DNA of 64,000 nt, taken from Escherichia phage Pollock. Numbering within the stretch: position 1 is the first letter of the stretch; the number at the start of each line of letters is the position of its first letter. This document shows, piece after piece, positions 8,102 to 25,672 of the stretch. A program made the position numbers and the translations under genes. Under the pieces are notes generated by a model. The model ran no database searches and was not told the origin of the DNA. It saw nothing but the letters and a program-made list of their open reading frames with translations. The stretch lies in the sequence record NC_027381.1. One strand, 5' to 3'.

Positions 8102-8224
8102 AATCTGGTTAAATGGGCGTCATTATGACGTCCATAATGTCTTTGATAAAGGGGAATATATTCAAGCTTACTTATGGACAGGCTGGGTATATTCCCCCTG
8201 CTTATTTAATAAAGAGGATTATAT

Positions 8225-8476
8225 ATGGCATTTAGTAAATTATGGAAAGCTATCCTAGTATTCACTTTTTTGTTAATTGGTAGTGCTTATAGTAAGGAAC
8301 ACACATTAAATCCTATATCTGAAGAAATGGATGTTCAAAGAATCCATGATGATGAAGCAGGCGTTACTTGCTGGATTTTATATGTTCCTAATACATCTAG
8401 ATATCAAATGCCTGACCATTACAGTATGAGTTGTTTACCTAATACTGTAATCAAACCAGAAGCAATTAAAAAATAA
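8225..8476 (+). CDS. Small secreted protein, 83 aa
   Basis: N-terminal signal-peptide-like stretch AILVFTFLLIGSAYS. Confidence 0.4.
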   Translation: MAFSKLWKAILVFTFLLIGSAYSKEHTLNPISEEMDVQRIHDDEAGVTCWILYVPNTSRYQMPDHYSMSCLPNTVIKPEAIKK

Positions 8477-8502
8477 ATAATTAAAACTTATAACTTCATA
8501 CT

Positions 8503-8532
8503 AAGCCTCCTTTTATGGAGGCTTTTAGTTTT
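8503..8532 (+). terminator. Rho-independent terminator
   Basis: aagcctcc-ttttat-ggaggctt stem-loop followed by a T-rich run. Confidence 0.65.
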
Positions 8533-8579
8533 ATACAAATGCTTCTTATACAGGAGCATCTTTATAAAACTATGTAGGA

Positions 8580-9035
8580 TTGGATATGAAAGTTAAACTG
8601 AAAGTACTTCCATTTAATAACACCAATATGAGCTTACCTAAACCAGCAACAGATGGTTCTGCTGGTATTGATTTACGAGCCAATACAGTTATGCCATTCG
8701 AACTTAAACCGGGAGAAACTACTCTGGTAAATACTGGTTTAGCTATCCATCTGGATGATGTTCACTATGCAGGTATGATTTTACCTCGTTCTGGGTTAGG
8801 GCATAAACATGGTATTGTGCTTGGAAATCTTACAGGTCTCATTGATAGTGATTATCAAGGGGAACTGATGGTAAGCCTCTGGAATCGCTCTACAAAGCCT
8901 TTTACTATTAATCCAGGTGACCGTATTGCTCAGTTAGTTATTGTGCCTGTAATGCAGCCTGAATTTGTTATAGTAGACTCTTTTGAAGCTACTGAAAGAG
9001 GCGAAGGTGGTTTCAACTCTACTGGAGTTAAGTGA
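8580..9035 (+). CDS. dut: dUTP pyrophosphatase (dUTPase)
   Basis: Conserved trimeric dUTPase motifs: [33 protein letters not shown], and C-terminal glycine-rich motif. Confidence 0.85.
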
Positions 9036-9208
9036 TGACTGAACCAATGAGTAAGTTTGAGCTAGAAAGACATATCCATAATCTTAAGGAATATGATTCC
9101 AAGATTGCTGGTCATGAATCTGAAGTAGTTCGTCTACAAGAAGAACGTCGAGAGTACATTAATCGACACAATCTTAACAAGATTGCAGAGAAGGTATTTC
9201 CTGCTTAA
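9035..9208 (+). CDS. Small hypothetical protein, 57 aa (hand-called)
   Basis: ATG overlapping the dUTPase stop; charged helical sequence. Confidence 0.3.
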   Translation: MTEPMSKFELERHIHNLKEYDSKIAGHESEVVRLQEERREYINRHNLNKIAEKVFPA

Positions 9209-9234
9209 GCGCCTACGGCGCTCTCTTTGGTTAT
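9209..9234 (+). promoter_or_regulatory. Second-class hairpin motif (TAC loop plus TCTCTTTGG)
   Basis: gcgcc-TAC-ggcgc followed by tctctttggttat; similar elements at 10011 and 18161; function unknown. Confidence 0.3.
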
Positions 9235-9263
9235 AGCTACCTTCGGGTAGCTTTTTATTTTTT
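9235..9263 (+). terminator. Rho-independent terminator
   Basis: agctacc-ttcg-ggtagct stem-loop followed by TTTTTATTTTTT. Confidence 0.75.
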
Positions 9264-9582
9264 GGGGAAAATGATGGCTAAAGAACCAATCTCCAAACTA
9301 TGTATTCCTATTGGAGATAAATATGAAATTACCTCTAATGGGTATTCATATGTATTAGTTGAGAAAAGAACTGTTCAATCAGGAGTTAAAGCTGGGACTA
9401 CTGCTTCCAGTAATGTTGGTTATTTTCAGACTTTAGGTTCTCTTGCTAAACAGTTAATTAATAAAGAAGTATGTGAAACTAACATTACTTCTTTACAACA
9501 ATTAAATGAGCGTATCGAAGAACTAGGTATTGGTATAGCTCAGTTACTTGAACAACTTGTTAAACAAAATGAAGGTAAATGA
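9262..9582 (+). CDS. Hypothetical protein (likely true start ATG at 9271)
   Basis: ORF after a terminator; C-terminal coiled-coil-like sequence. Confidence 0.4.
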   Translation: MGKMMAKEPISKLCIPIGDKYEITSNGYSYVLVEKRTVQSGVKAGTTASSNVGYFQTLGSLAKQLINKEVCETNITSLQQLNERIEELGIGIAQLLEQLVKQNEGK

Positions 9583-10006
9583 AATGGCACTAACCAATGA
9601 ACAAAAGCAAGCACTTGAAATTGTAGCTGACTTGATTAAACAACAAGAGAATCCTCTAGTTGTTTCGGCTGGATTGGCTTTGCTGTTTAAATTGGAAATT
9701 TCCAATATGTCTCCTCGTGAAGTATTGGAACAGATTGGTAAAGAACTTAAAGCTGAACATGACCATGATTCAGGATGTACTTGTCTTGAACGTCATCATT
9801 TCTTATTGAACGTTCTGAACAATCTGGAAAAACAGAAGTTCAATGATGAAGTTACTTATAAATTGTTGAGTACTGCTGAAGATGCTTGGGACACGTTTGA
9901 AGAACGTTATGAACGTATTCCTACTGTTACCTATACACCTTCGCAATTCACCATTCAAACTGGTGTACCGGGTATTTATTTTATTCACCCTGCTGTACAG
10001 AAGTAA
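9548..10006 (+). CDS. Hypothetical protein, about 140 to 152 aa
   Basis: ORF; the start may be the downstream in-frame Met (MALTNEQ). Confidence 0.45.
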   Translation: MNNLLNKMKVNEMALTNEQKQALEIVADLIKQQENPLVVSAGLALLFKLEISNMSPREVLEQIGKELKAEHDHDSGCTCLERHHFLLNVLNNLEKQKFNDEVTYKLLSTAEDAWDTFEERYERIPTVTYTPSQFTIQTGVPGIYFIHPAVQK

Positions 10007-10010
10007 TTCT

Positions 10011-10030
10011 CGCACTTCGTGCGTCTCTTA
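10011..10030 (+). promoter_or_regulatory. Second-class hairpin motif (TTC loop plus TCTCTT)
   Basis: cgcac-TTC-gtgcg followed by tctcttagg, then a terminator-like hairpin. Confidence 0.3.
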
Positions 10031-10053
10031 GGAGTCATTTTGGCTCCTTTTTA
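10031..10053 (+). terminator. Rho-independent terminator
   Basis: ggagtca-ttt-tggctcc stem-loop followed by TTTTT. Confidence 0.6.
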
Positions 10054-10078
10054 TTAACATCTGAAAGAGGAATTTATT

Positions 10079-10528
10079 ATGGGTTTATTTGGTTTTGGTA
10101 AGAAAAAAGTTAGTCAGAAAGTAGAACAAATGCGAGCTACCGCTGGAAAGATGGAAAATAAAGATATCGTTGAAGCAGGTATCGCTGTAATGGTTGGTGT
10201 AGCATTTGCAGATAAATCTTGCTCTGATGAAGAAATTGAAATTCTGGAAAATATCATTGAATCTGATGACACCTTTGCAGAATGGCGTTCTGAAACTCAG
10301 GCAATGACTAATAAATGGATAAGCAAATTCCAGAAATTCCATCGTGGTGCAATGATGGATTTGGAAAAAGAATTTAACGACCTGAAAGGAGACCCTGCTG
10401 GTCAGAAACGTGCTTTGCTGTGTGGTATTGCCGTAGCAGAAGATGATGAAGGCATGGGTGCAGAAGAAAAAGCTTTTCTTGAAAAAGTTGCAGGTTGGGC
10501 AGGCATCCGTTTGGATACTTTACTGTAA
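10079..10528 (+). CDS. TerB-like protein (tellurite-resistance TerB domain)
   Basis: Two-repeat architecture comparable to TerB: AGIAVMVGVAFADKSCSDEEIEILENII and ALLCGIAVAEDDEGMGAEEKAFLEKVA, length about 150 aa. Confidence 0.55.
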   Translation: MGLFGFGKKKVSQKVEQMRATAGKMENKDIVEAGIAVMVGVAFADKSCSDEEIEILENIIESDDTFAEWRSETQAMTNKWISKFQKFHRGAMMDLEKEFNDLKGDPAGQKRALLCGIAVAEDDEGMGAEEKAFLEKVAGWAGIRLDTLL

Positions 10529-10690
10529 ATGGCACTGAAATTACGAGGAATAATAGTAGCCGTATTATTGTTCCTTGTAGTTGCTATCGACTTCACTAGT
10601 AAGGTGATGTCGATACTAGCAGACGGTGTATTAGTTGCTGCTGTAATAGCAATAATGTGGCCTGTATTTAAAAGGACTAACAATGAGTAA
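10529..10690 (+). CDS. Small membrane protein, 53 aa (hand-called)
   Basis: Start overlaps the TerB-like stop; hydrophobic IIVAVLLFLVVAI and VLVAAVIAIMW segments. Confidence 0.3.
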   Translation: MALKLRGIIVAVLLFLVVAIDFTSKVMSILADGVLVAAVIAIMWPVFKRTNNE

Positions 10691-11015
10691 ACCAAAAATT
10701 GAAATTGAAAAGATTGATGCTTTACGTAATGCATTTAATGCAATGTACGTATCTCATCAAGAAATATCTGTAGGTGATATTGTTATTCTACACCCTTCAG
10801 TTCCGGGAATTTTTAAAGTTCCTACTGAAGAACGTCCGGGTATCGTTACTAAATTTCTACCAAAACCAATGTATGCGTATGAAATGGCTGACGATACACG
10901 TCCAAGCCATCCTTCTTCAGCAATACAATATGATTGTGTAATCAATATCATTAATGACGATGGTGAAATTGTTCCATTCTTAATGGATTCTCGTCGCCTC
11001 CTTAAAGTTAATTAA
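10683..11015 (+). CDS. Hypothetical protein, 110 aa
   Basis: ORF; terminator follows at 11021..11050. Confidence 0.45.
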   Translation: MSKPKIEIEKIDALRNAFNAMYVSHQEISVGDIVILHPSVPGIFKVPTEERPGIVTKFLPKPMYAYEMADDTRPSHPSSAIQYDCVINIINDDGEIVPFLMDSRRLLKVN

Positions 11016-11020
11016 TCTAT

Positions 11021-11050
11021 AAGCCTACTTAGTAGTAGGCTTTCATTTTT
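11021..11050 (+). terminator. Rho-independent terminator
   Basis: aagcctact-tagt-agtaggctt stem-loop followed by a T-rich run. Confidence 0.7.
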
Positions 11051-11069
11051 CATCTGTAAAGGTAATCCT

Positions 11070-11153
11070 ATGCGTCCTACAGCTATTAAAAAAGCTATTG
11101 AAAGAGCTTTTGCAGCAGGACTTGTTCCTTTTATTAAAGGTAGTCCGGGTATT
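11070..11153 (+). CDS. MoxR-like AAA+ ATPase, exon 1 (N4 gp24-like)
   Basis: Encodes MRPTAIKKAIERAFAAGLVPFIKGSPGI, ending in the first half of a Walker A motif (GSPGI) right before an in-frame TGA. Confidence 0.65.
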
Positions 11154-11543
11154 TGATTTTACAAGATACCCTAAGCAGTGATGCTTAGTAAAAAATCCCT
11201 TGAATTGCTGGAAACCCTTAAAGCTGAATTAACTACTGCGAGTTGAAAAACAAAGCCAATGTTTAAAAATAATTCAGATATGTAGGCAATCAGCAGCCAA
11301 GCTCCTAAGGTTTAGGATATTAAGCTATGGAGAAGGTTCAACGACTAGGCGTAAGCCGTACACTCAAGTGAGTGGAAGTGGGGGACTCTTTACAAACTTA
11401 CCACCATGGAATACCTTTTGTATTTGCAAAGAAAGGTCTATGTCGTAAATGTAGTAAAGATGAAGATATAGTCTCGTCTTATGTGAAAGCATAAGCTGTT
11501 TAATAAACAGAGGGTAGCTTAACGAACTACCCTGAAGATTACG
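11154..11543 (+). ncRNA. Group I intron, ORF-less (intron 1 of the MoxR-like ATPase gene)
   Basis: Contains td-type core elements: P-like AATTGCTGGAAA, Q-like AATCAGCAGCC, R-like GTTCAACGACTAG, S-like AAGATATAGTCT; 5-prime exon ends in U and intron ends in G; splicing restores Walker A GSPGIGKS. Confidence 0.7.
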
Positions 11544-11786
11544 GGTAAATCTGCAATTATTCGTCAAATTGCAAAAGAAGCTAAATTATTGGTTATTGAC
11601 CTTCGTTTAGGTCAATGTGACCCAACTGATTTATTGGGATTTCCAAATATTGAGAATGGACGGTCTGTATATCATCCACCAAAAGATATTCCAATTATTG
11701 GGGATGAAATTCCTAAAGGATATAACGGTTGGCTGTTATTCCTTGATGAAATGAATACAGCACCTAAAGCTGTTCAGGCTGCTGCT
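11544..11786 (+). CDS. MoxR-like AAA+ ATPase, exon 2
   Basis: Encodes GKSAIIRQIAKEAKLLVIDLRL...GWLLFLDEMNTAPKAVQAAA: Walker A completion plus Walker B LLFLDEMN, matching MoxR LLADEINRAPPKTQSALLE. Confidence 0.7.
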
Positions 11787-12630
11787 TAAATTAATAGGCA
11801 TTTATGGGGGAAACCTCATATCTAAAGCTACTTAAAACGGGGAACTCTTAGTAGTGTATATACACTAAAGACAATCCGTTGCTAAATAGGAATTAAGATG
11901 CAAGAAGTTTGGAAAGCTATTCCCGGATATGAGAAAGAATATGAAATTTCTACTCATGGACGGATTAAGAGTTTAGATAGAGTCGTTCCTTGTAAACATG
12001 GCACTCGCCTTGTTAAAGGAAAATTATTAAAAACCTATATTAATCGAAAAGGGTATTTAATTGTTACTTTATCTAAAGAAAATAAACTGAAAACATATAC
12101 CGTACATCAGTTAGTTGCTCTTACATTTATTCCAAATTTCATTAAAGGCACAGAAATTAATCATAAAGACGGTAATAAATCCAATCCAGTATTAGATAAT
12201 TTAGAAATTAGCAACCCTAGCCATAACCAGTTACATGCTATAGCTACAGGTCTTAAAGCAAAGGTTGGTAAGAGTAAATACCACAATGTAACTTACATTA
12301 AAAACCCACGGGCTAAGAAAAAGTGGGCTGCAAGTATAAGTTATAATGGGGAAAAATCTTTTGGATGGAAAACATTTATGACAGAAGAAGAAGCTGCAAG
12401 ATATGTAGATAAACTTCTTGATGAAATAGGTGATACTTCCCGTTTAAGAAATTTCTAATTAATTCCTTAAATGCCCAACGACTAGTCGAAAGACGTAGGC
12501 TCAAGTGAGTCGAAAAAGTAGCTCCCCAAACAAGTAAAGTTGTGGGGATTGATATAGTCTGCTCTATATAGAAATATATAGCTGGATTAATTATCCGGGT
12601 AATGATTAACGACCATTACTGAACATAAGG
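11787..12630 (+). mobile_element. Group I intron carrying an HNH homing endonuclease (intron 2 of the MoxR-like ATPase gene)
   Basis: R-like CAACGACTAG and S-like GATATAGTCT elements downstream of the HNH ORF; exon ends in U, intron ends in G; splicing yields AVQAAAYKLLDRMVGQT, matching MoxR QSALLEAMQERQVTIGGQT. Confidence 0.7.
11898..12458 (+). CDS. Intron-encoded HNH homing endonuclease
   Basis: N-terminal WKAIPGYEKEYEISTHGRIKS (NUMOD4-like), HNH core HQLVALTF...NHKDGNKSNPVLDNLE...HNQLH, C-terminal AP2-like WAASISYNGEKSFGWKTFMTEEEAARYVD. Confidence 0.8.
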   Translation: MQEVWKAIPGYEKEYEISTHGRIKSLDRVVPCKHGTRLVKGKLLKTYINRKGYLIVTLSKENKLKTYTVHQLVALTFIPNFIKGTEINHKDGNKSNPVLDNLEISNPSHNQLHAIATGLKAKVGKSKYHNVTYIKNPRAKKKWAASISYNGEKSFGWKTFMTEEEAARYVDKLLDEIGDTSRLRNF

Positions 12631-13320
12631 TATAAACTGTTGGACCGTATGGTAGGACAAACCAAATTACATCCTAGTGTTTATATTGCTGCTGCTGGTA
12701 ACAAAGATACAGATGGAGCAATTACTACTACTATGAGTAGTGCAACTCTATCTCGTATTGTTAGTATGGAACTAGAAGTTAACTTTAATGATTGGGCTGT
12801 ATGGGCATTAGCCAATAACATTGACCATCGCATCATGGGATATCTTCAGTTCAAACCAGAAGCATTCCATAAATTTGACCCTAAAAATCTTAAAGAACCT
12901 TTTCCATGCCCACGTACATGGGAGTTCATTAACCGTGCTATTAATGGATTAGATGTATCTTTAAATTCTGATTTGGGTTTATTGTCTGGAATTATTGGTA
13001 ATGGCACTGCTCGTGAATTTATTGAGTATTGTGCTATCTATGGTGAGATTGCTTCCTTTGAAGAAATTATGTCTAATCCAGAAAGCATTGTCATCAAAGA
13101 CAGACCAGACATTAAGTATGCATATGCTGGTTTTGTAGCTTCTCGCATTACCCCTGAAAATGCATCTCAATTAATGAAATTCATTAATCGACTGCCCGTT
13201 GAATTTCAGATTGTAACTTTGAGTAATGCTTTTAAAGCTAAACCTCTCATTTCTCAAGTTCCAGAAATAATGGAATGGATTACTCGTTATGCCAACGAGT
13301 CAGGTGAAGGGATGCTCTAA
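12631..13320 (+). CDS. MoxR-like AAA+ ATPase, exon 3
   Basis: Encodes YKLLDRMVGQTKLHPSVYIAAAGNKDTDGA..., the sensor and C-terminal region of an AAA_5/MoxR ATPase; an in-frame stop lies a few codons upstream of 12631. Confidence 0.7.
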   Translation, partial: YKLLDRMVGQTKLHPSVYIAAAGNKDTDGAITTTMSSATLSRIVSMELEVNFNDWAVWALANNIDHRIMGYLQFKPEAFHKFDPKNLKEPFPCPRTWEFINRAINGLDVSLNSDLGLLSGIIGNGTAREFIEYCAIYGEIASFEEIMSNPESIVIKDRPDIKYAYAGFVASRITPENASQLMKFINRLPVEFQIVTLSNAFKAKPLISQVPEIMEWITRYANESGEGML

Positions 13321-14434
13321 TAAGGAGTTTCCTATGGATAAGAATAAAGCACTGGATTTAGCCAAAGTAGATTTATTTGCCCGTAAACAAAATACTTTTA
13401 TTTGTTCCATCTTTTGCTCACTTCAGCTTAAGTGGGACGATACCATCCCTACAGCTTGTACTGATGGTTTGAGTATCTTGATAAATCCAGATTATTTTAT
13501 GGATTTACCACGTCCAATGCGAGTGACACTTCTTGCTCATGAGACGTGGCATGTTGCTTTAAAACATGTCTTAAGGGTTACGGGAAGAAATCCAAAATTA
13601 TGGAATTATGCTTGTGATTATTACATCAATAATATGCTTGATGATGCTAAGTATGTTATTGGTACTGGTTGGCTATTAGACCATCAGTATGATGGCATGA
13701 GTGCTCCAGAAATCTATAACAAGCTACAAAAATCCAGTAAAAACCTGCCTCAAAATTTATTAGGTATGGATATTAAACCCTGTCCTTCTTCATCAGAAGA
13801 AGCTATTGAATCACAAATTGATTCTATGCTTATTCGTGGCTCTATTGCTGCAAAGCAAGGAGGACAAGCTGGAAGTATCCCCGGAGATATCCAAGCATAT
13901 ATTGATGAGCTTCTGAATCCTAAATTACCTTGGAACGATATTCTCAGAAATTTTATTAATGAGATGACTCGTAATGACTACACTTGGGCTAAACCTAATA
14001 AACGGTATTTGCCTGATATTTATTTACCTTCTCTAAATTCTGAAGGTCTAGAACATATCATTTTTTATACTGATATTTCTGGTTCAGTATCTGATACACA
14101 ATTTGGTGTGTATATCAGTGAAATTCATGCAATTAAAACAACATTGAATCCAAAACGAATTACAGTATGTACGTTCGATACAAAGATTCATGAAGTGTAT
14201 GAATTAGAAGAAGGAGATGATATTAGTAAGTGTACGTTTACAGGTAGAGGAGGTACATCTCTTACTTGTGTGTATGAACATGCTAAGAAAGAGAAACCAG
14301 AACTCATCGTAATATTTTCTGATTTGGATTGTGCTCCAATGAAGGAACAACCTACACCTAATGTCATTTGGGTATGTTTGGACAATCCAACAAAAACAGT
14401 TGATTTTGGTCAACTGATTCATGTGAAAAGTTAA
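13289..14434 (+). CDS. VWA-domain protein with HExxH motif (MoxR partner; N4 gp25-like)
   Basis: HExxH-like LLAHETWHVALKH in the N-terminal half; MIDAS-like FYTDISGSVSD in the C-terminal half; sits directly downstream of the MoxR-like ATPase. Confidence 0.65.
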   Translation: MPTSQVKGCSNKEFPMDKNKALDLAKVDLFARKQNTFICSIFCSLQLKWDDTIPTACTDGLSILINPDYFMDLPRPMRVTLLAHETWHVALKHVLRVTGRNPKLWNYACDYYINNMLDDAKYVIGTGWLLDHQYDGMSAPEIYNKLQKSSKNLPQNLLGMDIKPCPSSSEEAIESQIDSMLIRGSIAAKQGGQAGSIPGDIQAYIDELLNPKLPWNDILRNFINEMTRNDYTWAKPNKRYLPDIYLPSLNSEGLEHIIFYTDISGSVSDTQFGVYISEIHAIKTTLNPKRITVCTFDTKIHEVYELEEGDDISKCTFTGRGGTSLTCVYEHAKKEKPELIVIFSDLDCAPMKEQPTPNVIWVCLDNPTKTVDFGQLIHVKS

Positions 14435-14477
14435 TCTGCATGAGTAGGTAAATTTTAATTTACCTTTCAGATGTTTT

Positions 14478-14506
14478 TGCCCTCTTTGTGAGGGCATCTT
14501 TTTTTG
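14478..14506 (+). terminator. Rho-independent terminator
   Basis: tgccctc-tttgtg-agggca stem-loop followed by TCTTTTTTT. Confidence 0.75.
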
Positions 14507-14516
14507 GAGTTGTCTC

Positions 14517-14921
14517 ATGTTTAATATTCATAAAGCTGTACGTGATGCAGCTAATTCTATGTACCCAAAGAAAATTAAAATGGAAGTACCAAGTAATCTT
14601 CCTTTATCTAATAACCGTTGTCATTACAACGCTGTACAAGCAGTTAAAAATAATTTAGCTGCTGGAATATTAGAAGTAGTTATTATTTATAAAAATGACT
14701 GTACAGTTCATTATGTAAATGTATTACCTAATGGTACTTGTGTAGATTTCACATTAGGAGTCATGTGTATAAATGATGATTATCGTTTTATACGTCATGT
14801 TTCTCCTAATGAATATGACACCATTAATAAAACTTTAAAAAATGCTAAGGATAAGTTATATGCTTCAACCCCTTGGTACATACAGAAATTAATAAAACTT
14901 TCTGGTAAAGATTGGTGTTAA
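14517..14921 (+). CDS. Hypothetical protein, 134 aa
   Basis: ORF; Cys-containing; no recognisable family. Confidence 0.45.
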   Translation: MFNIHKAVRDAANSMYPKKIKMEVPSNLPLSNNRCHYNAVQAVKNNLAAGILEVVIIYKNDCTVHYVNVLPNGTCVDFTLGVMCINDDYRFIRHVSPNEYDTINKTLKNAKDKLYASTPWYIQKLIKLSGKDWC

Positions 14922-15736
14922 TAATGAAAGAACAAGAACAACTTAGAAAAGATATTTCTCGTATCTTTTCAATCTTTAAAGCCAGTGAATGTAAATTACG
15001 TCCTCATTTCATTCTTACTGGAGAAAGTGGTACTGGAAAAACTTTCTTAATTAAGTCTTTAACTGAACAGCATAAAATGGATTATATTGAAATTAATGCT
15101 GCTCAGCTAACTAAAGAAGGTTTATCGGGAAATAGCTTAAGTAAGGCACTTGCTCCTTTACGCCAAGCTAATGGTAATCCTGTCATCTGTTTTGTAGATG
15201 AATTCGATAAATTATTTATCGCAGGGAATAACAATAGTGAATTAGCTCATGAATCTACCAATGGAGTTCAAAACGAATTCCTTAAGATTCTTGAATCTGA
15301 ATGTACTTCTGTATTTGGTGATTATGGTAAATATGTAGATGTTCCTGTAAATAATGTTCTATTTGTATTTGCAGGAGCATTCAATGGTGAACCAAATATC
15401 ACTTTAGATAAGCTACGTACTTTTGGTGTTAAAACTGAATTTTTAGGTCGTGTGGGTTTAGTTTATAACACTGTCAAAATTAGCTTAGAAAGTCTTATTC
15501 AAGTCTTAAAAGATTCAGACACTCTCACTATGTATCTGGATTTATTTCCAGAAGTTAAACGAGAGAAAGCCATCAAAGATATCTCAGCATTTATCAAAGA
15601 TAATTATGAGATGAATACTTTGGGTATTCGTATGGTTAATACGTTAATTACTCAATATTTCATTCAAGATGGAAAACTCACCCGAGATGAAGTTAAAACC
15701 AGTACTTTCCAAAATAAACTTAAATTTGGTGAGTAG
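14912..15736 (+). CDS. AAA+ ATPase, ClpX/HslU-like nucleotide-binding domain
   Basis: Walker A GESGTGKT; TKEGLSGNSL resembles ClpX TEAGYVGEDV; Walker B ICFVDEFDK resembles ClpX IDEIDK. Confidence 0.55.
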   Translation: MVLIMKEQEQLRKDISRIFSIFKASECKLRPHFILTGESGTGKTFLIKSLTEQHKMDYIEINAAQLTKEGLSGNSLSKALAPLRQANGNPVICFVDEFDKLFIAGNNNSELAHESTNGVQNEFLKILESECTSVFGDYGKYVDVPVNNVLFVFAGAFNGEPNITLDKLRTFGVKTEFLGRVGLVYNTVKISLESLIQVLKDSDTLTMYLDLFPEVKREKAIKDISAFIKDNYEMNTLGIRMVNTLITQYFIQDGKLTRDEVKTSTFQNKLKFGE

Positions 15737-15871
15737 TACGTCTAAATCTCCTATTGCATGGGATATCTTTCGTATCCCTTCAAAACATGTATGTCGAACC
15801 AAGAAACGCACTGTAGCCACTATTGCTCGTAATAAGGGTTATCGTGTGATTCCTGTGTTCGGAAGAAGTTA

Positions 15872-15888
15872 AAGCCCCTTCGGGGCTT
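15872..15888 (+). terminator. Hairpin, possible terminator or RNA processing site
   Basis: aagcccc-ttcg-gggctt perfect stem-loop but no clear T-run. Confidence 0.35.
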
Positions 15889-15966
15889 GCCTCGGAAAGA
15901 AAGAGGAATTAATCCTCTTCAAATTAAACTCTATTTTTAATCCCAATCTGAAAAGGTAAATGAAAA

Positions 15967-17409: not shown

Positions 17410-17435
17410 ATCATATTCGTTAAGTGATTCTCTAA

Positions 17436-17460
17436 TAGCCCTTCAATGAGGGGCTATTTT
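17436..17460 (+). terminator. Rho-independent terminator
   Basis: tagccc-ttcaatga-ggggcta stem-loop followed by TTTT. Confidence 0.6.
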
Positions 17461-17479
17461 AGTTATCACTGGAGGAATC

Positions 17480-18160
17480 ATGAAAAATCTTTATCAGAAG
17501 ATTAATGGAAGCCAGTACAACCGAATCTTCGTTGTGGGAGATTTACATGGTTGTTTCGATGCTCTTCAAAAAGAAATGTGGGCTGTTCAATTTAATACTG
17601 AAACAGACCTTATTATATCTGTAGGTGATTTAATTGACCGTGGTACTCAAAACGTAGAGTGTTTACGTCTATTAAAAGAACCTTGGTTTAAAGCTGTTTT
17701 AGGTAATCATGAAGTAATGGCATTGAATGCCTTATCTTCTGAACTTGACAGTGAAGAATCCAACTTAGCCTATTATAACTGGTTTAGTAATGGGGGTAGT
17801 TGGATTATGGATATTACGGAAGAACAGAAACCAGAAGTATTAGAGTTATTTGGTCTGGTAGCTGAATTACCGGGAATCATCGAAATCTCTGTAGATGATA
17901 AAACTATTGTTGTTTGTCATGCAGACTACCCTTCAAATCAGTATGAATTCAATAAACCTATTGATGAAAATACCCTTATTTGGGGAAGAGGACGTATTGT
18001 TCTAAACCAAAATAAAAAAGGTACTGTTATTGAAGGTGCTGATGAATTCTATTTTGGACATACCCCAGTTAAAGAACCTACTAAATTCTATAATCAAAAC
18101 TATATTGATACAGGAGCAGTATTTCCTGTTGGTCAATTAAGTATGATTCAAATCAAATAA
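17480..18160 (+). CDS. Ser/Thr protein phosphatase (calcineurin-like metallophosphoesterase)
   Basis: Motifs GDLHG, GDLIDRG, GNHE and a later histidine motif, as in lambda-type phosphatases. Confidence 0.8.
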   Translation: MKNLYQKINGSQYNRIFVVGDLHGCFDALQKEMWAVQFNTETDLIISVGDLIDRGTQNVECLRLLKEPWFKAVLGNHEVMALNALSSELDSEESNLAYYNWFSNGGSWIMDITEEQKPEVLELFGLVAELPGIIEISVDDKTIVVCHADYPSNQYEFNKPIDENTLIWGRGRIVLNQNKKGTVIEGADEFYFGHTPVKEPTKFYNQNYIDTGAVFPVGQLSMIQIK

Positions 18161-18187
18161 CTGCCTACGGCAGTTTCTTTGGTTAAT
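18161..18187 (+). promoter_or_regulatory. Second-class hairpin motif (TAC loop plus TTTCTTTGG)
   Basis: ctgcc-TAC-ggcag followed by tttctttggttaat, upstream of ORF 18203. Confidence 0.3.
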
Positions 18188-18202
18188 TTCACATCTGTAT
18201 AG

Positions 18203-18517
18203 GTGCTCAATATGAATATTCAAAAATTTGGGGAGATTACATTTATTGGTAAATCTAATTTACCTGCAATGACTAACTTTGTTTTTGAAGTAGAAAACAA
18301 AGCAGAATCTGAAATGATTGAAAATCATCAAGTTAAAACATTGCTTATGTTAACTGCTGTACGAAATCATTTCGATAGTGTAATCAGTATGGTTCAAAAC
18401 AAGCTTGATAAAGCTTCTATAAGTGATTTTGAGGACTTTTCTGTACCAGTAGGTAAAAGTGATAAGTCTCCTAAAGAAATCGTATTAGAGAGCCTCTCAC
18501 GAATTATGAATAAGTAG
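18203..18517 (+). CDS. Hypothetical protein, 104 aa
   Basis: ORF only. Confidence 0.4.
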   Translation: MLNMNIQKFGEITFIGKSNLPAMTNFVFEVENKAESEMIENHQVKTLLMLTAVRNHFDSVISMVQNKLDKASISDFEDFSVPVGKSDKSPKEIVLESLSRIMNK

Positions 18518-18545
18518 TATTGAGCCTCTATAGTTAAGGGGGTTT

Positions 18546-18809
18546 ATGTCAGATTCTTCAAACAATACATATCGTGGAAACATGATGTGTATTAAGTTTT
18601 CCTATGACTTTAAGATAATCCTCCCTATTGAAGATGGTAAAGCCTTACTAGAATTATTGAGTAAAGCTGAACTCTTCAAAGAAGAGTATCAAAAAGAACC
18701 TCATATTGAACCAATGGATAAAGACATTGATATTAGGTTCTTAGCAAGAACTACATATGAACGTCTTAAACTTAACTTTTTAAGGTCTGATAATAATGAG
18801 CCTGACTAG
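18546..18809 (+). CDS. Hypothetical protein, 87 aa
   Basis: ORF only. Confidence 0.4.
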   Translation: MSDSSNNTYRGNMMCIKFSYDFKIILPIEDGKALLELLSKAELFKEEYQKEPHIEPMDKDIDIRFLARTTYERLKLNFLRSDNNEPD

Positions 18810-20040
18810 TTGCCAAGAGCAAGCAGCTAAACAGTTCTTATCGTTTCTTTGTACTTCAGAGAAACATATGGTTATTTCAGGTCCTCCCGGAGTAGGCAAA
18901 ACATTCATGCTTAATCACATGATTGAGATGTTGCCTAGTAGCAGGCGTATTACAACTATTATGGGAGCAGAACCTCTTCATAATATTGCTATAACAGCTA
19001 CTACTAATAAAGCTGCTGAAGTACTTCAGGAAAGATTCCCTGATAGACAAGTAACAACAATTCATTCAAAGCTAGGGCTTACAGTAAGAGATGATTACCG
19101 TACAGGTAAAACATTTACTGATAAGAGTAAAGGCTTTACACCTCTATCCGACACTCTCGTCTTAATGGACGAATCTTCAATGGCGGATACTCAATTACTG
19201 AAATTGATTGATGAAGGTACTTCTAAAAACTGTAAGATAGTTTTTATTGGAGACCATTGTCAGTTAGCTCCAGTGTCAGAAACAATGAGTCCAGTCTTCA
19301 ACTCGGGCTACATTACTTCATATCTAAATACCCAAATGCGTACTAGTAATAGTCCTGCATTAACTTTGCTGAATGAACAATTGCGTCAAACAGTAGAAAC
19401 GGGTGTCTTCAGACCAATTACTCCTGTTCCCGGTACTATCGAATTCGTTGATGACGATACGATGAGACAATTGATGAATGCTAATTTCATCTCACAGGAA
19501 ACTCCCGGTCACAAAATCCTTGCATACACAAACAATGGGGTTCAAGAATACAACACGTATATTCGAACCAAAAAGAATCTACCTCCGACATTAATAGTTG
19601 GTGATACTGTTGTATCAAACAATAGTATTGAGACTGCTGGTTCTCGAACAATTATTGAAAAAGCATACAATGTATATCATGTATCTGAAATCCAATATGA
19701 TGATGTAATTCCTTATTACTTAGTTGATATTGGAGTTGGTGGTTTAGTAAAACAACCAGTTAACTTTTCACAGCTACAAACTCATATCAGAGAAGAAGCC
19801 AGTGAAAAGAATTGGGTAGAGTATTTCCGTTTAAAGAATGAATTTGCTGACCTACGGTTTGCATATGCATCAACGGTTCATAAATCTCAAGGTTCAACCT
19901 TTGATACTGTATATATAGATTTAACTGATTTATGTATCTGTAAAGACATGAATCAATTAGCCCGTATGCTTTATGTAGCTGTAAGTCGTGCTACTACTCG
20001 TGTTGTGTTCTATGGTAATCCTCCTCATTTTATGAGGTGA
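18796..20040 (+). CDS. SF1 DNA helicase (Dda/RecD-like)
   Basis: Walker A GPPGVGKT, Walker B LVLMDESSM, C-terminal ASTVHKSQGSTFDTVYID and YVAVSRATTRV motifs typical of Dda/RecD-type helicases. Confidence 0.8.
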   Translation: MSLTSCQEQAAKQFLSFLCTSEKHMVISGPPGVGKTFMLNHMIEMLPSSRRITTIMGAEPLHNIAITATTNKAAEVLQERFPDRQVTTIHSKLGLTVRDDYRTGKTFTDKSKGFTPLSDTLVLMDESSMADTQLLKLIDEGTSKNCKIVFIGDHCQLAPVSETMSPVFNSGYITSYLNTQMRTSNSPALTLLNEQLRQTVETGVFRPITPVPGTIEFVDDDTMRQLMNANFISQETPGHKILAYTNNGVQEYNTYIRTKKNLPPTLIVGDTVVSNNSIETAGSRTIIEKAYNVYHVSEIQYDDVIPYYLVDIGVGGLVKQPVNFSQLQTHIREEASEKNWVEYFRLKNEFADLRFAYASTVHKSQGSTFDTVYIDLTDLCICKDMNQLARMLYVAVSRATTRVVFYGNPPHFMR

Positions 20041-20516
20041 TTATGTCTTCATATACAGAACCAACAAAATTACAGAAAGAGATTCTTATAGATTGGTTAT
20101 TAAACTCAATTACAGATAGTTTCTGTACTTTTGTTTATAACAGGGAAAAACAACTCTGTATTGATAATGATGCTCCTAATGGATTTATGTTTAATAACAT
20201 GGTCTTTAGGGAATCATCTAATATGGTTTTTTACTGTAAACCAGAATTAGTTGAAACAGCTAAAGAAGTGTGGAAACTCAAACAAAAAGTTAAAAGAGAT
20301 TGGTTATATCTCGAAAACTATTTTAGAAAAGTTTTTGCACGAATAACTCACTACGGTCAGTTGTATTGTTATGTTCCTTCATTCATGCATAAAAACTTAG
20401 ATAAAGTATTCTCTACTACTGTTTTAGGGGAGAAGACTATTATCGAAGGATTAATGCCTGATGAATCTATGCATAAGTTAATCTCTTTCTATGTAATGAC
20501 ACGATTGGTTATTTAA
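20037..20516 (+). CDS. Hypothetical protein, 159 aa
   Basis: ORF with start overlapping the helicase stop. Confidence 0.45.
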   Translation: MIMSSYTEPTKLQKEILIDWLLNSITDSFCTFVYNREKQLCIDNDAPNGFMFNNMVFRESSNMVFYCKPELVETAKEVWKLKQKVKRDWLYLENYFRKVFARITHYGQLYCYVPSFMHKNLDKVFSTTVLGEKTIIEGLMPDESMHKLISFYVMTRLVI

Positions 20517-20761
20517 TGGATATCGCATTTGTAGTTTCCAAATTGATTGTTACAGAGTACACGTTGCTTAGACAATGGTGGCCTGAACAATTACGTCAAT
20601 CCAGATATGTAGATAATGGAATGACTAGAACTTACTTCTTAGATACACATCCATCCCCTGAACTTCAAGAACTCATAGAAGAGTTACATAAGTTTGGGAG
20701 AGAGTATCGACTTATAGATTTAAGAGGAGTGGAAATAGATAATGCGTCATATAATCTTTGA
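20516..20761 (+). CDS. Hypothetical protein, 81 aa
   Basis: ORF only. Confidence 0.4.
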   Translation: MDIAFVVSKLIVTEYTLLRQWWPEQLRQSRYVDNGMTRTYFLDTHPSPELQELIEELHKFGREYRLIDLRGVEIDNASYNL

Positions 20762-22688
20762 ACAAAATCAAAGATATCCAATCGCCATTCTTATTAAACC
20801 TCAACAACTAAAGAAGAAAGAGATATTAGAAGCTTATATCAATCCTACTGGAATCAAGCCAAATCAATTTATTGCATTTGACCTTGAGTACAATGGGAAA
20901 AAAGCTCCTGTATCTATGCAGAAAGACTATCTTAAAGTCTTACTACCAGAGCTTTGTAATTTAAGAACAGAATATATTCTGTGCTGTGATAGTGCATATT
21001 TCAAAACCTTAACCAAGCAATCTAAAGCAGAACCTCATTGTGGTTATGTATTGCCTTGTGTCATTCCTGGTTTTGAACATCTAAATATTATTTTCTGTCC
21101 TAATTATGCTCAGATTTTCTATGACCCTTCTGTACAGGATAAAGTTAATCTGGCTCTCAAAGTTCTAGTAGATAAGGTAAATGGTCAATACCAAGAGATT
21201 GGTAAGAACATTATCCATACTGCTTACTATCCTTCTACAGTTGAAGAAATTGAAGCTTGGCTTGAATCTCTACATCAATATCCAATTCTAGCTTCAGATA
21301 TAGAGGCATTTAGTCTTAAATTCTATAAAGCAGGTGTAGGTACTATTGGATTTGCATGGGACCAACACAATGGAGGAGCATTCGCTGTTGATTATACGAA
21401 TGAACCAGACAAGGCTGAAAGAATTAGGCAGGCTCTTAAGAAGTTTTTTGAAACTTATGAAGGCAAACTGATTTGGCATAACTCAAGTTATGACTTAACA
21501 GTGCTTATTTACCAGCTTTGGATGAATGGTTTAGTAGACCAAAAAGGATTGCTTAAGGGTTTGCACATCATGTGTCGTAATTTTCACGATACTAAGATTG
21601 TGACATATCTGGCTACAAACTCTTGTGCAGGTAATGAGTTAGGGCTAAAAGCTCAAGCTCATGAATTTGCAGGAAACTATGCACAAGAAGATATTGATGA
21701 TATTACTAAAATCCCATTACCAGACCTTCTGGAGTACAACTTAATTGACTGTCTAAGTACTTGGTATGTTGCAGACAAACATGCAGATACTATGGTATTG
21801 GATGAACAATGGGAAATTTATAATACTCTGATGTTACCTTCGCTGAAGAATATTATTCAGATGCAATTAACTGGTATGCCTATTGATATGGCAGAGGTTA
21901 AGAAGGTTAAAGCAGAAATGATTAAAGAGCGAGATGGTTATCTTAGAGCCATCAAGTCATTTGCAGTAGTAGATTTGTTAGTTAACAACCTACGTAAACA
22001 ACATGTTGCTACTAGAAATGCTACGCTCAAAACCAAGCAAATTACAATGTCTGATGAGGAGACATTAGCAATAGAGTTTAATCCAAACTCTAACCCTCAA
22101 ATGCAGGAACTTTTGTATGAAATTATGGGATTACCTGTAATTGATTTAACTGATTCTAAGCAGCCTGCTACTGGTGCAGATACTCTAGAAAAGTTAATTC
22201 ATCATACAGATGATGATAGACAGAAAAAGATTCTTGAATGCCTTATTAAATATTCTAAGGTAGAAAAAATTCTTTCTGCATTTATACCTGCATTCGAAGA
22301 AGCACCTTTAGCTGAAGATGGTACTCATTATTTATTCGGAAGCTATAACTTAGGTGGTACTGTATCTGGTCGTTTGAGTTCATCAAAACCAAACATGCAA
22401 CAAATTCCTTCCTCTAAGAGTCCTTACGCCAAACCTATAAAACGATGTTTTAAAGCTGGTAAAGGTTGGCTTCTTATTGGATTAGATTTTGCATCTCTTG
22501 AAGACCGTATTTCTGCTCTAACAACCAAAGACCCTAATAAATTGAAAGTGTATATGGGGGTGAATGTTTATACGGTTACTATAGAGGGGGTTGACCATCA
22601 TATTCGAGATGACGATACAATCATTTATGATGGTAAAACTTACACTGGTGAAGAGTTCTATGATGCTTTTACCTGTGGCCTTCTATGA
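20742..22688 (+). CDS. Family A DNA polymerase, N-terminal segment (3-prime to 5-prime exonuclease domain through polymerase motif A)
   Basis: Pol I-type motifs SGRLSSSKPNMQQIP and motif A LDFASLEDR; the ORF then runs about 45 codons further to a stop; motifs B and C lie in a different frame downstream of an HNH ORF. Confidence 0.8.
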   Translation: MRHIIFEQNQRYPIAILIKPQQLKKKEILEAYINPTGIKPNQFIAFDLEYNGKKAPVSMQKDYLKVLLPELCNLRTEYILCCDSAYFKTLTKQSKAEPHCGYVLPCVIPGFEHLNIIFCPNYAQIFYDPSVQDKVNLALKVLVDKVNGQYQEIGKNIIHTAYYPSTVEEIEAWLESLHQYPILASDIEAFSLKFYKAGVGTIGFAWDQHNGGAFAVDYTNEPDKAERIRQALKKFFETYEGKLIWHNSSYDLTVLIYQLWMNGLVDQKGLLKGLHIMCRNFHDTKIVTYLATNSCAGNELGLKAQAHEFAGNYAQEDIDDITKIPLPDLLEYNLIDCLSTWYVADKHADTMVLDEQWEIYNTLMLPSLKNIIQMQLTGMPIDMAEVKKVKAEMIKERDGYLRAIKSFAVVDLLVNNLRKQHVATRNATLKTKQITMSDEETLAIEFNPNSNPQMQELLYEIMGLPVIDLTDSKQPATGADTLEKLIHHTDDDRQKKILECLIKYSKVEKILSAFIPAFEEAPLAEDGTHYLFGSYNLGGTVSGRLSSSKPNMQQIPSSKSPYAKPIKRCFKAGKGWLLIGLDFASLEDRISALTTKDPNKLKVYMGVNVYTVTIEGVDHHIRDDDTIIYDGKTYTGEEFYDAFTCGLL

Positions 22689-23205
22689 ACAACGGTATAA
22701 GATTTTTGATGAAGGTTTCATCTTAAATCTTGCAAACAATCAACTCCTAAAACCAATTCTCAATTCTAATGGATACCTTAAAGTTGGATTAGCTAATGGT
22801 GATGGTACTCATCATCAAGAGCTACTTCATATTCTGGTAGCTAAACACTTCATTCTAAATCCTTATGGCTACAAACAGGTAAACCATAAAGATGGTAATA
22901 AACTGCATTGCCATAAGGACAATCTGGAATTGTGTTCTGCTACTCAGAACGTCAAACATGCATTTAAAACAGGACTACGCCCCGGTTATATGTCTGCTGA
23001 TGATAAAGAGAAATATCTCTTTGAGGTACTAGCAGGCAAGCAAGTTAAGGACATTGCTTTTGAAATAGGCAGACGTCCTGAAACTCTGCACAAGATGCTT
23101 AGAATCACTGCTGACCGACTTGGTATCCGAAATGAATGGGACGATGTTATGAGGAGAAATAGAAAAGATGTTGCTTTACGACAGCTTGCCAAAATCAACT
23201 CATGA
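22591..23205 (+). CDS. HNH homing endonuclease inserted in the DNA polymerase gene (true start probably downstream of 22591)
   Basis: HNH_3-type core NGYLKVGLANGDGTHHQELLHILVAKHF...VNHKDGNKLHCHKDNLE...NVKH; paralogous to the intron-encoded HNH at 11898. Confidence 0.7.
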   Translation: MTIIFEMTIQSFMMVKLTLVKSSMMLLPVAFYEQRYKIFDEGFILNLANNQLLKPILNSNGYLKVGLANGDGTHHQELLHILVAKHFILNPYGYKQVNHKDGNKLHCHKDNLELCSATQNVKHAFKTGLRPGYMSADDKEKYLFEVLAGKQVKDIAFEIGRRPETLHKMLRITADRLGIRNEWDDVMRRNRKDVALRQLAKINS

Positions 23206-24028
23206 CTTCACTGGCAAGAAAATTGACAACGTAGTCAAGGCTGGTAATTCGTCAGGGTATGATGGTCATAGTTTGAGGGCATTTGCTTACTTTGGCGACC
23301 AGATGCCTGATATTGTAGATACTGTGGAAAGTATCAATAGTATTCAGGAATTATATAAGGACTTTAGACAAGACTCTAAAGCTCCTACTTTTGCATTAAC
23401 TTATCAAGGTACTTATCACACATTAATGGCTAACTGTGGTTTCCCAGAGGATAAAGCCAAAATGGTTGAGAAGAGGTATCACGAACTCTACTTCGTATCT
23501 GACCAATGGGTAAACGCTAAATTAACTCAAGCCAGTAAAGATGGATATATCACTGCTGCATTTGGATTAAGAATCCGTACTCCATTACTTAAAAATGTTG
23601 TCTGGGGAATTAAACAAACTCCTTATGAAGCTAAAGCTGAAGGCAGAACTGCTGGAAATGCTTTAGGTCAATCATGGTGTTTATTAAATAACAGGGCAGC
23701 AAATGAATTTATGGAACGAGTATGGAATTCTCCATACGCATATGTAATTAAACCATGTGCTCAAATCCATGATGCTCAATATTATCTGGTTCCAGATAAC
23801 ATCGACATTGTTCATTGGGTTAATGAAAATTTAGTCGAATGTATTGAGTGGCAAAACCATCCTGATATTTATCACGATAAAGTGAAATTAGGAGGGGAAT
23901 TAAGCGTCTTTTATCCATCATGGGCTAATGATATTTCATTGAAAAATGGAGCCTCTAAAGAGGAAATCTTAAGCACATGTGAAATTGGATTAGATAAGTA
24001 TCTTTACCCGGAGAAATATAAAAAATGA
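23168..24028 (+). CDS. Family A DNA polymerase, C-terminal segment (motifs B and C)
   Basis: DGHSLRAFAYFG (Pol I DIHRATAAEVFG), motif B RQDSKAPTFALTYQG (Pol I RRSAKAINFGLIYG), motif C CAQIHDAQ (Pol I VHDE); GAGGAG lies about 10 nt upstream of ATG 23168. Confidence 0.8.
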   Translation: MLLYDSLPKSTHDFTGKKIDNVVKAGNSSGYDGHSLRAFAYFGDQMPDIVDTVESINSIQELYKDFRQDSKAPTFALTYQGTYHTLMANCGFPEDKAKMVEKRYHELYFVSDQWVNAKLTQASKDGYITAAFGLRIRTPLLKNVVWGIKQTPYEAKAEGRTAGNALGQSWCLLNNRAANEFMERVWNSPYAYVIKPCAQIHDAQYYLVPDNIDIVHWVNENLVECIEWQNHPDIYHDKVKLGGELSVFYPSWANDISLKNGASKEEILSTCEIGLDKYLYPEKYKK

Positions 24029-24402
24029 ATATCTTACAGTCACCTATTGATAATGCTCCTGCAATTTTACAGGAAGCAAGTCGTTGTATTGCTGCCAGAG
24101 CACATGAACGAGATAAAGAATCTGAACGTTCAATGTCTCGTTGTGTAGCGGCTTTTAATGCCATGTATGATTTAAATTTAACAGAAGAACAAGGTTGGAT
24201 GTTCATGGTTTTTTTGAAAGCTGCTAGAGCATCAGGAGGTGCATTTAAACTTGATGATTATGTTGATGGTTCTGCTTACTTTGCATTAGCTGGTGAAGCT
24301 GCTATCCCACATCCTCAAATGAAATTATCTCTATCTACCTCAGAATTAGTTAAAAAACATATGGAACATTTTGGTATTCCAGCAAGTAAGGAACAAATTT
24401 AA
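24025..24402 (+). CDS. Hypothetical protein, 125 aa
   Basis: ORF only. Confidence 0.45.
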   Translation: MNILQSPIDNAPAILQEASRCIAARAHERDKESERSMSRCVAAFNAMYDLNLTEEQGWMFMVFLKAARASGGAFKLDDYVDGSAYFALAGEAAIPHPQMKLSLSTSELVKKHMEHFGIPASKEQI

Positions 24403-25034
24403 TGCAAGTTAAATTAATTACTGTAACTCCTGATGCAGAAAAAATCATTGGTTATATTGCTCGTGTATCCAATCCAGATAACCAAGATAATCCATCTGTA
24501 GCTGGTTTACTTCGTTACTGTATTAAACATGCTCATTGGAGTGTGTTTGAACAAGCAGACATGACTCTTGAGATTGAAACTACTCGTGCTATTTCTGCAC
24601 AAATTATTCGTCATCGTAGTTTTACTTTCCAAGAATTTAGTCAGCGATATGCAGAAGTTAAACAAATTCCTGCTGTTTTTGATTTACGTTCTCAGGATGA
24701 AAAGAATCGTCAAAATTCTATCGACAATATTCCTGCCGATTTAAAAGCTGACCTTCAAACCAAGATTCAAACTCACATTGTAGAAACTCAACGTTTGTAT
24801 GAAGAGTTATTGGCTCAAGGTGTAGCTAAAGAATGTGCTCGTATGATTCTGCCAATGTGTACTCCAACTAAGATTTACATGAAAGGTAATATTCGTAGCT
24901 GGATTACATATATTCAATTACGTAGTGCAAATGGTACTCAGAAAGAACATATGGAAATTGCTTTAGCTGCTAAAGAAATTTTCAAAACACAATTCCCAAT
25001 TATCTCTGAAGCCCTAGGATGGGATAAGGATTAA
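24402..25034 (+). CDS. thyX: Flavin-dependent thymidylate synthase ThyX
   Basis: ThyX signature RHR-x7-S motif (IRHRSFTFQEFSQRY); length about 210 aa. Confidence 0.85.
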   Translation: MQVKLITVTPDAEKIIGYIARVSNPDNQDNPSVAGLLRYCIKHAHWSVFEQADMTLEIETTRAISAQIIRHRSFTFQEFSQRYAEVKQIPAVFDLRSQDEKNRQNSIDNIPADLKADLQTKIQTHIVETQRLYEELLAQGVAKECARMILPMCTPTKIYMKGNIRSWITYIQLRSANGTQKEHMEIALAAKEIFKTQFPIISEALGWDKD

Positions 25035-25037
25035 TTT

Positions 25038-25670: not shown

Positions 25671-25672
25671 TC

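Follow-up and report, generated by a model that had tools for sequence, protein, structure and literature searches.

Two enzymes of known structure provide close points of reference for the nucleotide metabolism of Escherichia phage Pollock – the dUTPase (Dut) of Escherichia coli, a chromosomally encoded homotrimer (PDB 1DUD/1DUP), and the flavin-dependent thymidylate synthase (ThyX) A674R of the chlorovirus PBCV-1 (PDB 2CFA/4FZB), for which 2CFA is presumably the apo structure and near-identical to 4FZB. The PBCV-1 enzyme (4FZB) is an active thymidylate synthase, and in E. coli strain FE010 it takes the place of thyA (PMC3498832). Gram-negative bacteria make dUMP mostly by deamination of dCTP to dUTP by dCTP deaminase (Dcd), followed by hydrolysis of dUTP to dUMP by Dut (PMC10733785). 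Pollock itself was announced as an N4-like phage with a polymerase interrupted by an intron-encoded HNH endonuclease, and with four tRNAs (PMC4319500). Here, we describe the dut and thyX genes of Pollock within a 64,000-nucleotide (nt) stretch of its genome (the window; sequence record NC_027381.1), beyond which lies a further ~4 kb. Pollock is a podophage (Schitoviridae, Humphriesvirinae), the window is 36% G+C and 64% A+T, and our focus is on the + strand, where both genes are located:

8586..9035, + strand: dut, trimeric dUTPase of 149 aa, identified by Pfam, NCBIfam, a match to PDB 1DUD and five motifs
24402..25034, + strand: thyX, flavin-dependent thymidylate synthase of 210 aa, its ATG overlapping the stop codon of a DUF6378 gene (TAATG)

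Both genes are ordinary and are already annotated in GenBank/RefSeq, and they very probably constitute a conventional pair that raises dTTP supply for an AT-rich phage genome. As the preliminary description of this DNA had noted, they are dispersed rather than clustered, being ~15.4 kb apart, and the arrangement is syntenic in Salmonella phage FSL SP-076 and Shigella phage B2. By megablast against a phage collection, Pollock is closest to Salmonella phages FSL SP-076 and SP-058 (Ithacavirus), with ~83% nucleotide identity over ~70% of the region; these two phages, B2 (also Ithacavirus) and Pollock have in common the gene order dUTPase ... polA – DUF6378 – ThyX – Nmad5 – exonuclease – primase.

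The assignment of dut is secure at the level of protein family. Its product matches Pfam PF00692 over profile positions 2-129 of 129 (E=3.1e-40; 137.4 bits against a threshold of 22), and exceeds the cut-offs of two NCBIfam equivalogs, NF001862 (191.9 bits; cut-off 103) and TIGR00576 (157.8 bits; cut-off 102.55). It aligns collinearly with E. coli Dut (62% identity; E=5e-55), and the five dUTPase motifs are all found in both; in Pollock they are intact, as AGIDL26, PRSG67, GLIDSDYQG84, RIAQ113 and a fifth motif (numbered 138) that reads GFNSTG where E. coli has GFGHSG. At this level of identity, the Pollock protein would be predicted to assemble as a trimer and to hydrolyse dUTP specifically to dUMP and pyrophosphate (PPi). 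The two differ in setting, the E. coli gene being a chromosomal gene of the host and Pollock dut being phage-encoded within a short hairpin-flanked unit. Because Pollock Dut is also ~63% identical to the chromosomal Dut of Salmonella, the comparison suggests that dut was captured from a gammaproteobacterial host.

The dUTPase gene had initially been placed at 8580..9035, and although its family and its end are both borne out, its start is not: translation most likely begins at ATG 8586, 6 nt downstream, rather than at TTG 8580. The relevant element is:

8576..8579, + strand: AGGA, the Shine-Dalgarno sequence of dut as read from the sequence, 6 nt before ATG 8586 and abutting TTG 8580

The later start is favoured because the Shine-Dalgarno sequence leaves a spacer of 6 nt to the ATG and none to the TTG, because the relatives of the dut product are all 149 aa in length, and because the deposited Pollock form is of 149 aa also; the product as read from ATG 8586 is an exact match to that deposited dUTPase, YP_009152124.1.

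ThyX is equally well supported, and its ORF lies on the + strand exactly where it was first placed. The product matches Pfam Thy1 (PF02511) over profile positions 1-190 of 191 (E=9.5e-48; 162.9 bits against a threshold of 24.8), scores 170.8 bits against the NCBIfam equivalog TIGR02170 (cut-off 87.9), and is an exact match to the deposited Pollock 'thymidylate synthase', YP_009152149.1. The RHRX7S signature is present at residues 70-80 (RHRSFTFQEFS), and a HMMER alignment to 1KQ4 pairs R70, R72, S80 and R82 with R78, R80, S88 and R90 of the Thermotoga maritima (T. maritima) enzyme, which are residues that hydrogen-bond dUMP (PMC3498832). The motifs of both Pollock proteins thus align with their respective families and are intact. 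The closest homologue of solved structure, PBCV-1 ThyX, is 56% identical to Pollock ThyX over 199 aligned residues (E ~1e-72); both are compact proteins of ~210-217 aa with the signature RHRSFxFQEFSQRY, and the ThyX proteins of T4-like cyanophages (cyanomyoviruses) are of the same compact lineage, with 60-68% identity to that of Pollock. By its likeness to the PBCV-1 enzyme, Pollock ThyX is predicted to be an FAD-bound homotetramer that converts dUMP to dTMP in a reaction dependent on NADPH and methylene-tetrahydrofolate (CH2H4folate). Its circumstances differ from those of the chlorovirus protein, in that the Pollock host is a ThyA-using enterobacterium and Pollock thyX lies within an N4-like replication operon, flanked by DUF6378 and Nmad5 genes.

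Both genes are conserved in the closest relatives, the Dut proteins of SP-076, SP-058 and B2 being 85-90% identical to that of Pollock, and ThyX 92% identical in SP-076. Against SP-076 and B2, the ratio of nonsynonymous to synonymous substitution (dN/dS) is 0.095-0.11 for dut and 0.068 for thyX, so that dut and thyX are under strong purifying selection (dN/dS 0.068-0.11). These values bear upon the suggestion that one or both ORFs are decaying or mis-assigned, the dUTPase being, for example, a dCTP deaminase. The dUTPase ORF does give secondary matches to DCD (dCTP deaminase-like) models (5.9e-11 in Pfam; 1.3e-10 for TIGR02274), and phage N4 carries a dCTP deaminase. However, TIGR02274 scores 41.3 bits, well below its cut-off of 92.8, as against 191.9 bits (cut-off 103) for the dUTPase equivalog; both ORFs are full length, with 85-92% amino acid identity in relatives that have only ~83% nucleotide identity; and dN/dS does not exceed 0.11 for either. 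Judged by the equivalog scores and dN/dS, this explanation is effectively refuted, and its probability is negligible.

A second alternative is that the dUTPase is retained mainly for moonlighting regulation, as a signalling protein or derepressor in the manner of staphylococcal phage Duts. Some phage dUTPases do have a second, regulatory function, the PDB matches of the Pollock protein include staphylococcal phage DUTPases, and dut is set apart from the replication genes in a hairpin-flanked unit of its own. The staphylococcal matches are much weaker (E ~1e-14 to 1e-17) than that to E. coli Dut, however, and the 149-aa Pollock protein is collinear with the 152-residue E. coli enzyme over residues 4-149, leaving no insertion for a staphylococcal-type extra motif. 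With the catalytic motifs all intact and dN/dS at ~0.1 over the whole length of the gene, we consider a primarily regulatory role very unlikely.

If the two genes act as a conventional Dut–ThyX pair, Dut would convert dUTP to dUMP and pyrophosphate, both keeping uracil from phage DNA and feeding dUMP, and ThyX would then methylate dUMP, yielding dTMP, with the aid of methylene-tetrahydrofolate, FAD and NADPH. Because tetrahydrofolate is regenerated, the ThyX step would be independent of dihydrofolate reductase and of the unrelated ThyA of the host. The pair would widen two steps downstream of host Dcd and tilt the balance of pyrimidine nucleotides away from dC in favour of dT, with host kinases carrying dTMP to dTTP and host ribonucleotide reductase (RNR) providing deoxyribonucleotides; a dCMP deaminase would be unnecessary, because the host Dcd route already yields dUTP. 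Such a shift would favour a 64% A+T genome in a less AT-rich host. The same pool-shifting argument, with metabolomic support, has been made for AT-rich PBCV-1 in its GC-rich host (PMC10142491), and Pollock and PBCV-1 are alike in being AT-rich relative to their hosts. Other Schitoviridae strengthen neighbouring steps of the pathway – phage N4 with a dCTP deaminase, Erwinia phage S6 with Dut and ThyX, and Acinetobacter phage XC38 with ThyX and NrdAB.

Several considerations weigh against this account. From the sequences we infer enzymatic activity, a benefit from shifting the pools and middle-class timing of expression, and for the first of these the fifth dUTPase motif is a departure, being GFNSTG rather than the commoner GFGS(T/S)G, although the position evidently tolerates variation since E. 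coli itself carries GFGHSG. Since Dut and ThyA are both encoded by the host as well, a benefit from dut and thyX is presumed rather than evident. ThyX enzymes are generally slow, so that the quantitative contribution to dTTP is likewise a presumption, and the host composition set against that of Pollock is the general figure of ~51% G+C for E. coli.

The preliminary description had seen no ribonucleotide reductase or dCMP deaminase, and proposed profile searches for the two enzymes and for nucleotide-metabolism genes missed in small ORFs. These searches were run on a non-redundant set of 78 window ORFs of at least 40 aa, compared with Pfam; one Pfam table holds the best 25 of 47 families, the remainder all being weaker than E ~3e-5, and the vRNAP ORF (3537 aa) lay outside the scan. 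PHROGs and NCBIfam were run on selected window ORFs. Both enzymes were confirmed, and within this scope the small ORFs gave no missed nucleotide-metabolism gene: no RNR, dCMP/cytidine deaminase, dNMP kinase, thioredoxin or glutaredoxin was found, nor any aGPT-Pplase, 5-hmdU kinase, glycosyltransferase, radical-SAM or ThyA-family/hydroxymethylase protein. The complete annotation of the B2 genome agrees in having no RNR or dCMP deaminase, and neither it nor SP-076 positions 746-32429 lists any other nucleotide-metabolism enzyme; the region of B2 that matches the ~4 kb beyond the Pollock window contains tRNAs and small hypothetical genes. The sole borderline candidate in Pollock is a NinI-like metallophosphatase (17480..18160).

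The genes for nucleotide metabolism differ among more distant N4-like phages. N4 (Enquatrovirus, Enquatrovirinae) is syntenic with Pollock in the order polA ... exonuclease (gp42) – primase – Sak4-like protein – SSB – vRNAP, but encodes a dCTP deaminase (gp26) and has no Dut or ThyX annotated in the 32 kb viewed, whereas Pollock has both; N4, like Pollock, nonetheless strengthens the line from dCTP to dTTP. XC38 encodes ThyX and a class Ia RNR in the order ThyX–NrdA–NrdB–exonuclease, and S6 has Dut and ThyX, as does Pollock, with ThyX directly upstream of the exonuclease. The toolkit of Dut and ThyX sets the Humphriesvirinae branch apart from N4, with its dCTP deaminase, and XC38, in which ThyX is accompanied by RNR, and the initial view of the pair as unremarkable yet useful for classification holds up, in that the gene sets of N4, XC38 and S6 differ.

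In Pollock, thyX lies within an operon of the order polA – DUF6378 – thyX – Nmad5 – PD-(D/E)XK exonuclease – primase, in which its neighbours are:

23249..24025, + strand: C-terminal part of the family A DNA polymerase (corresponding to aa 605-863 of the uninterrupted SP-076 polymerase, which served as the tblastn query), the upstream anchor of the slot
24025..24402, + strand: DUF6378 protein of 125 aa (deposited as CPT_Pollock47), upstream neighbour of thyX, its start overlapping the polA stop (ATGA)
25038..25670, + strand: Nmad5-domain protein of 210 aa (full-length match to PF18757, E=4e-69; deposited as CPT_Pollock49), downstream neighbour of thyX after a 3-nt gap
25673..26659, + strand: PD-(D/E)XK exonuclease, the homologue of N4 gp42 (PHROG 2139, E=1.6e-145), the downstream anchor of the slot

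From polA through the exonuclease, stop and start codons either overlap or are 2-3 nt apart, and a hairpin scan found no strong + strand terminator between ~18600 and ~26800; by this arrangement, thyX is translationally coupled within the replication operon. The exonuclease is conserved, with identities to the Pollock protein of 45% for N4 gp42, 52% for S6 and 44% for XC38, and the interval between it and the polymerase reads as a variable slot and a hot spot for insertion and exchange of nucleotide-metabolism cargo. In N4 the slot holds gp40 and gp41, which are unrelated to Pollock DUF6378 and Nmad5. We considered, and rejected, the idea that thyX is an insertion into a conserved N4 pair of gp40 (as DUF6378) and gp41 (as Nmad5), because BLASTP gives E values of 1.1 and 0.26 and there is no Pfam match.

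Exchange at this slot is clearest in B2, whose ThyX (12369-13133; 254 aa) occupies the same position but is only 29.5% identical to that of Pollock and is non-orthologous, whereas the flanking genes are well conserved (DUF6378 85%, Nmad5 65% and exonuclease 86% identical). DNA similarity between Pollock and B2 ends at 24412 and restarts at 25024, each break falling no more than ~10 nt from an end of thyX, and megablast alignments of B2 and As2 end at window position 24412, in agreement with this boundary. Gene for gene, the segment replaced in B2 is essentially the thyX ORF alone. The RHR of the signature is KHK in the B2 protein and RHP in that of S6 (16595-17269), but both exceed the TIGR02170 cut-off of 87.9, with 115.7 and 110.1 bits respectively. 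Because proteins replaced in this way between lineages still pass the equivalog cut-off, the comparison suggests that thyX is exchanged independently of its neighbours, as a cassette the function of which is selected at the polymerase–exonuclease locus. Since B2 carries a non-orthologous ThyX at the identical position, the thyX sequence is a poor phylogenetic marker, and it is the presence or absence of the toolkit genes that is informative.

The immediate neighbours raise the possibility that thyX belongs instead to a three-gene DNA or nucleotide modification module (DUF6378–ThyX–Nmad5), making a modified pyrimidine or a hypermodification as in the M6/SN1-type phages. The Nmad5 gene is only 3 nt downstream of thyX and the DUF6378 gene overlaps its start, the trio is missing from the N4 slot with its unrelated gp40 and gp41, DUF6378 has many invariant charged residues, and one DUF6378 homologue is labelled by its source as 'Nucleotide modification associated domain 1'. 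Nmad5 is also found within a thymidine hypermodification cassette in SN1 and M6 phages (PMC9476957), and these cassettes and Pollock are alike in having an Nmad5-domain gene near a gene for a pyrimidine C5-modifying enzyme (PMC9476957). The M6/SN1 cassettes, however, also include a pyrimidine hydroxymethylase, aGPT-Pplases, a nucleotide kinase, and radical-SAM and PLP enzymes (PMC9476957), none of which were found in the Pollock scans; of the cassette components, only Nmad5 is present in the window, and the companions that hypermodification would call for – aGPT-Pplase, 5-hmdU kinase, glycosyltransferase, radical-SAM and ThyA-type hydroxymethylase – are absent from the ORFs scanned.

The distribution of the three genes likewise argues against a module. 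S6 has ThyX with no match to Nmad5 or DUF6378 in 28 kb, and XC38 has ThyX–NrdA–NrdB with neither. In the N4-like Vibrio phage PG11, Nmad5 follows SSB and DUF6378 is beside the exonuclease, ~5 kb apart and with no ThyX between them. Nmad5 without ThyX is also found in the lambdoid pL operon of mEp235 (near N, kil and erf), between the terminase and portal genes of ZRG1, and among the early genes of Vibrio phage D456. B2 has exchanged thyX alone while keeping both flanks, Dhillonvirus is viable after deletion of Nmad5 (PMC11846954), and the active site of Pollock ThyX is canonical throughout, in a protein with 56% identity to an established thymidylate synthase. Structure prediction points the same way, neither Nmad5 nor DUF6378 giving an enzyme-like fold match. 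We regard the modification module as very unlikely, and similarly give little credence to the broader proposal that DUF6378–ThyX–Nmad5 is a functional unit of the Humphriesvirinae, in which two strongly conserved helical proteins would link the dTMP produced by ThyX to the replisome, or else direct a thymidine-related DNA modification. Overall, thyX does not appear to be in a base-modification module, nor does its adjacency to Nmad5 and DUF6378 appear, on this evidence, to have functional meaning. Nothing found here supports the modification role implied by the name Nmad5, and that label beside thyX should not count as evidence of DNA hypermodification.

The two neighbours have features of their own. 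An enzyme fold could not be detected in Nmad5, a helical protein of ~210 aa that carries a conserved motif towards its C terminus (SVxTxKRLxEVWPExxELIP...LN..IG.P), and its genomic contexts are varied, including a lambdoid pL operon, a terminase–portal interval and N4-like replication modules. DUF6378 has 25 invariant columns across 27 diverse homologues, many of them charged (R25, R29, R35-S36, E54, K65, R68, D77-D78, D81 and E91), and some homologues are fused to HTH domains. Sequence searches of the PDB with Nmad5 and DUF6378 gave chance-level matches only, a structural model of DUF6378 (pLDDT 79.3) had no specific structural match, and Pfam gave no link of DUF6378 to Nmad1 or to MazG, the latter having been considered as a possible relative because of the all-alpha, four-helix NTP pyrophosphohydrolases of the MazG/HisE type. 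The 'phosphofructokinase' label that DUF6378 carries in PHROG and RefSeq is unsupported. In PADLOC, none of dut, thyX, DUF6378, Nmad5 and the exonuclease had a match.

At its own location, dut lies in a short unit bounded by hairpins both upstream and downstream:

8503..8524, + strand: terminator-like hairpin upstream of dut, AAGCCTCC-TTTTAT-GGAGGCTT followed by a T-run, a putative terminator
9032..9208, + strand: 58-aa ORF overlapping the dut stop codon, without a family match in Pfam
9208-9222 and 9235-9252, + strand: two terminator-like hairpins, from a hairpin scan, that close the short dut unit

B2 has a homologous small CDS (gp86) after dut, the counterpart of the 58-aa ORF. Across 7300-26800 on the + strand, terminator-like hairpins are ~3x enriched (28, compared with 9.4 +/- 3.3 in shuffled sequence) and sigma-70-like promoter matches are depleted (27, compared with 75.5 +/- 8.6); several of the predicted hairpins have 3-nt loops, such as those at 9208-9222 and 18159-18175. 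The hairpin excess and the promoter depletion together would fit N4-type transcription by phage RNA polymerases.

Two Pollock genes are interrupted, unlike the polymerase and ATPase genes of SP-076, which are intact. In the polymerase, a 695-nt insertion (22554-23248, + strand) falls at aa 604/605 and contains an HNH ORF (22591..23205); Rfam gave no group I intron signal in it, even at E<=1. The B2 equivalent is annotated as two polymerase CDSs and an HNH gene, and the Pollock enzyme may arise by splicing or be made as two polypeptides. The second is a gene for a MoxR-like ATPase (11070-13317, + strand), which, by comparison with its uninterrupted SP-076 counterpart, is divided into three segments:

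11070-11153, + strand: MoxR-like ATPase, aa 1-28
11544-11786, + strand: MoxR-like ATPase, aa 29-109
12631-13317, + strand: MoxR-like ATPase, aa 110-338

A group I intron that is full-length but lacks an ORF (Rfam RF00028, 11143-11495; 101.4 bits, E=4e-25) lies in the first gap. In the second, a NUMOD4/HNH endonuclease ORF (11898..12458) has on either side a group I match that falls short of the threshold (33.5 and 28.9 bits), which suggests a second, ORF-bearing intron in this gene. The genome announcement mentions an intron in the polymerase only (PMC4319500).

Elsewhere in the window, Pfam scans identified a TerB/TciA homologue and a GH24 endolysin; these two, the HNH gene within the polymerase, the 36% G+C content and the N4-like character all agree with the genome announcement (PMC4319500). 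A 167-aa early protein (3870-4373, + strand), labelled 'phosphatase' by PHROG, has a local match at residues ~103-160 to the ADP-ribosyl glycohydrolase macrodomain of the antitoxin DarG (NF048014, E=8.7e-11, scoring well short of the cut-off; PADLOC DarG, E=1.5e-11), and may act in counter-defence against DarT-type ADP-ribosylation of DNA. ARAGORN found no tRNA genes in the window; because the announcement reports four (PMC4319500), the tRNA cluster is placed in the ~4 kb beyond it. B2 has nine tRNAs between its terminase region and its early genes.

Although of little import beyond annotation, the dut–thyX pair documents how this N4-like branch reinforces the route from dCTP through dUTP and dUMP to dTMP, and it offers a modest marker for comparison of the Schitoviridae at the level of subfamilies.

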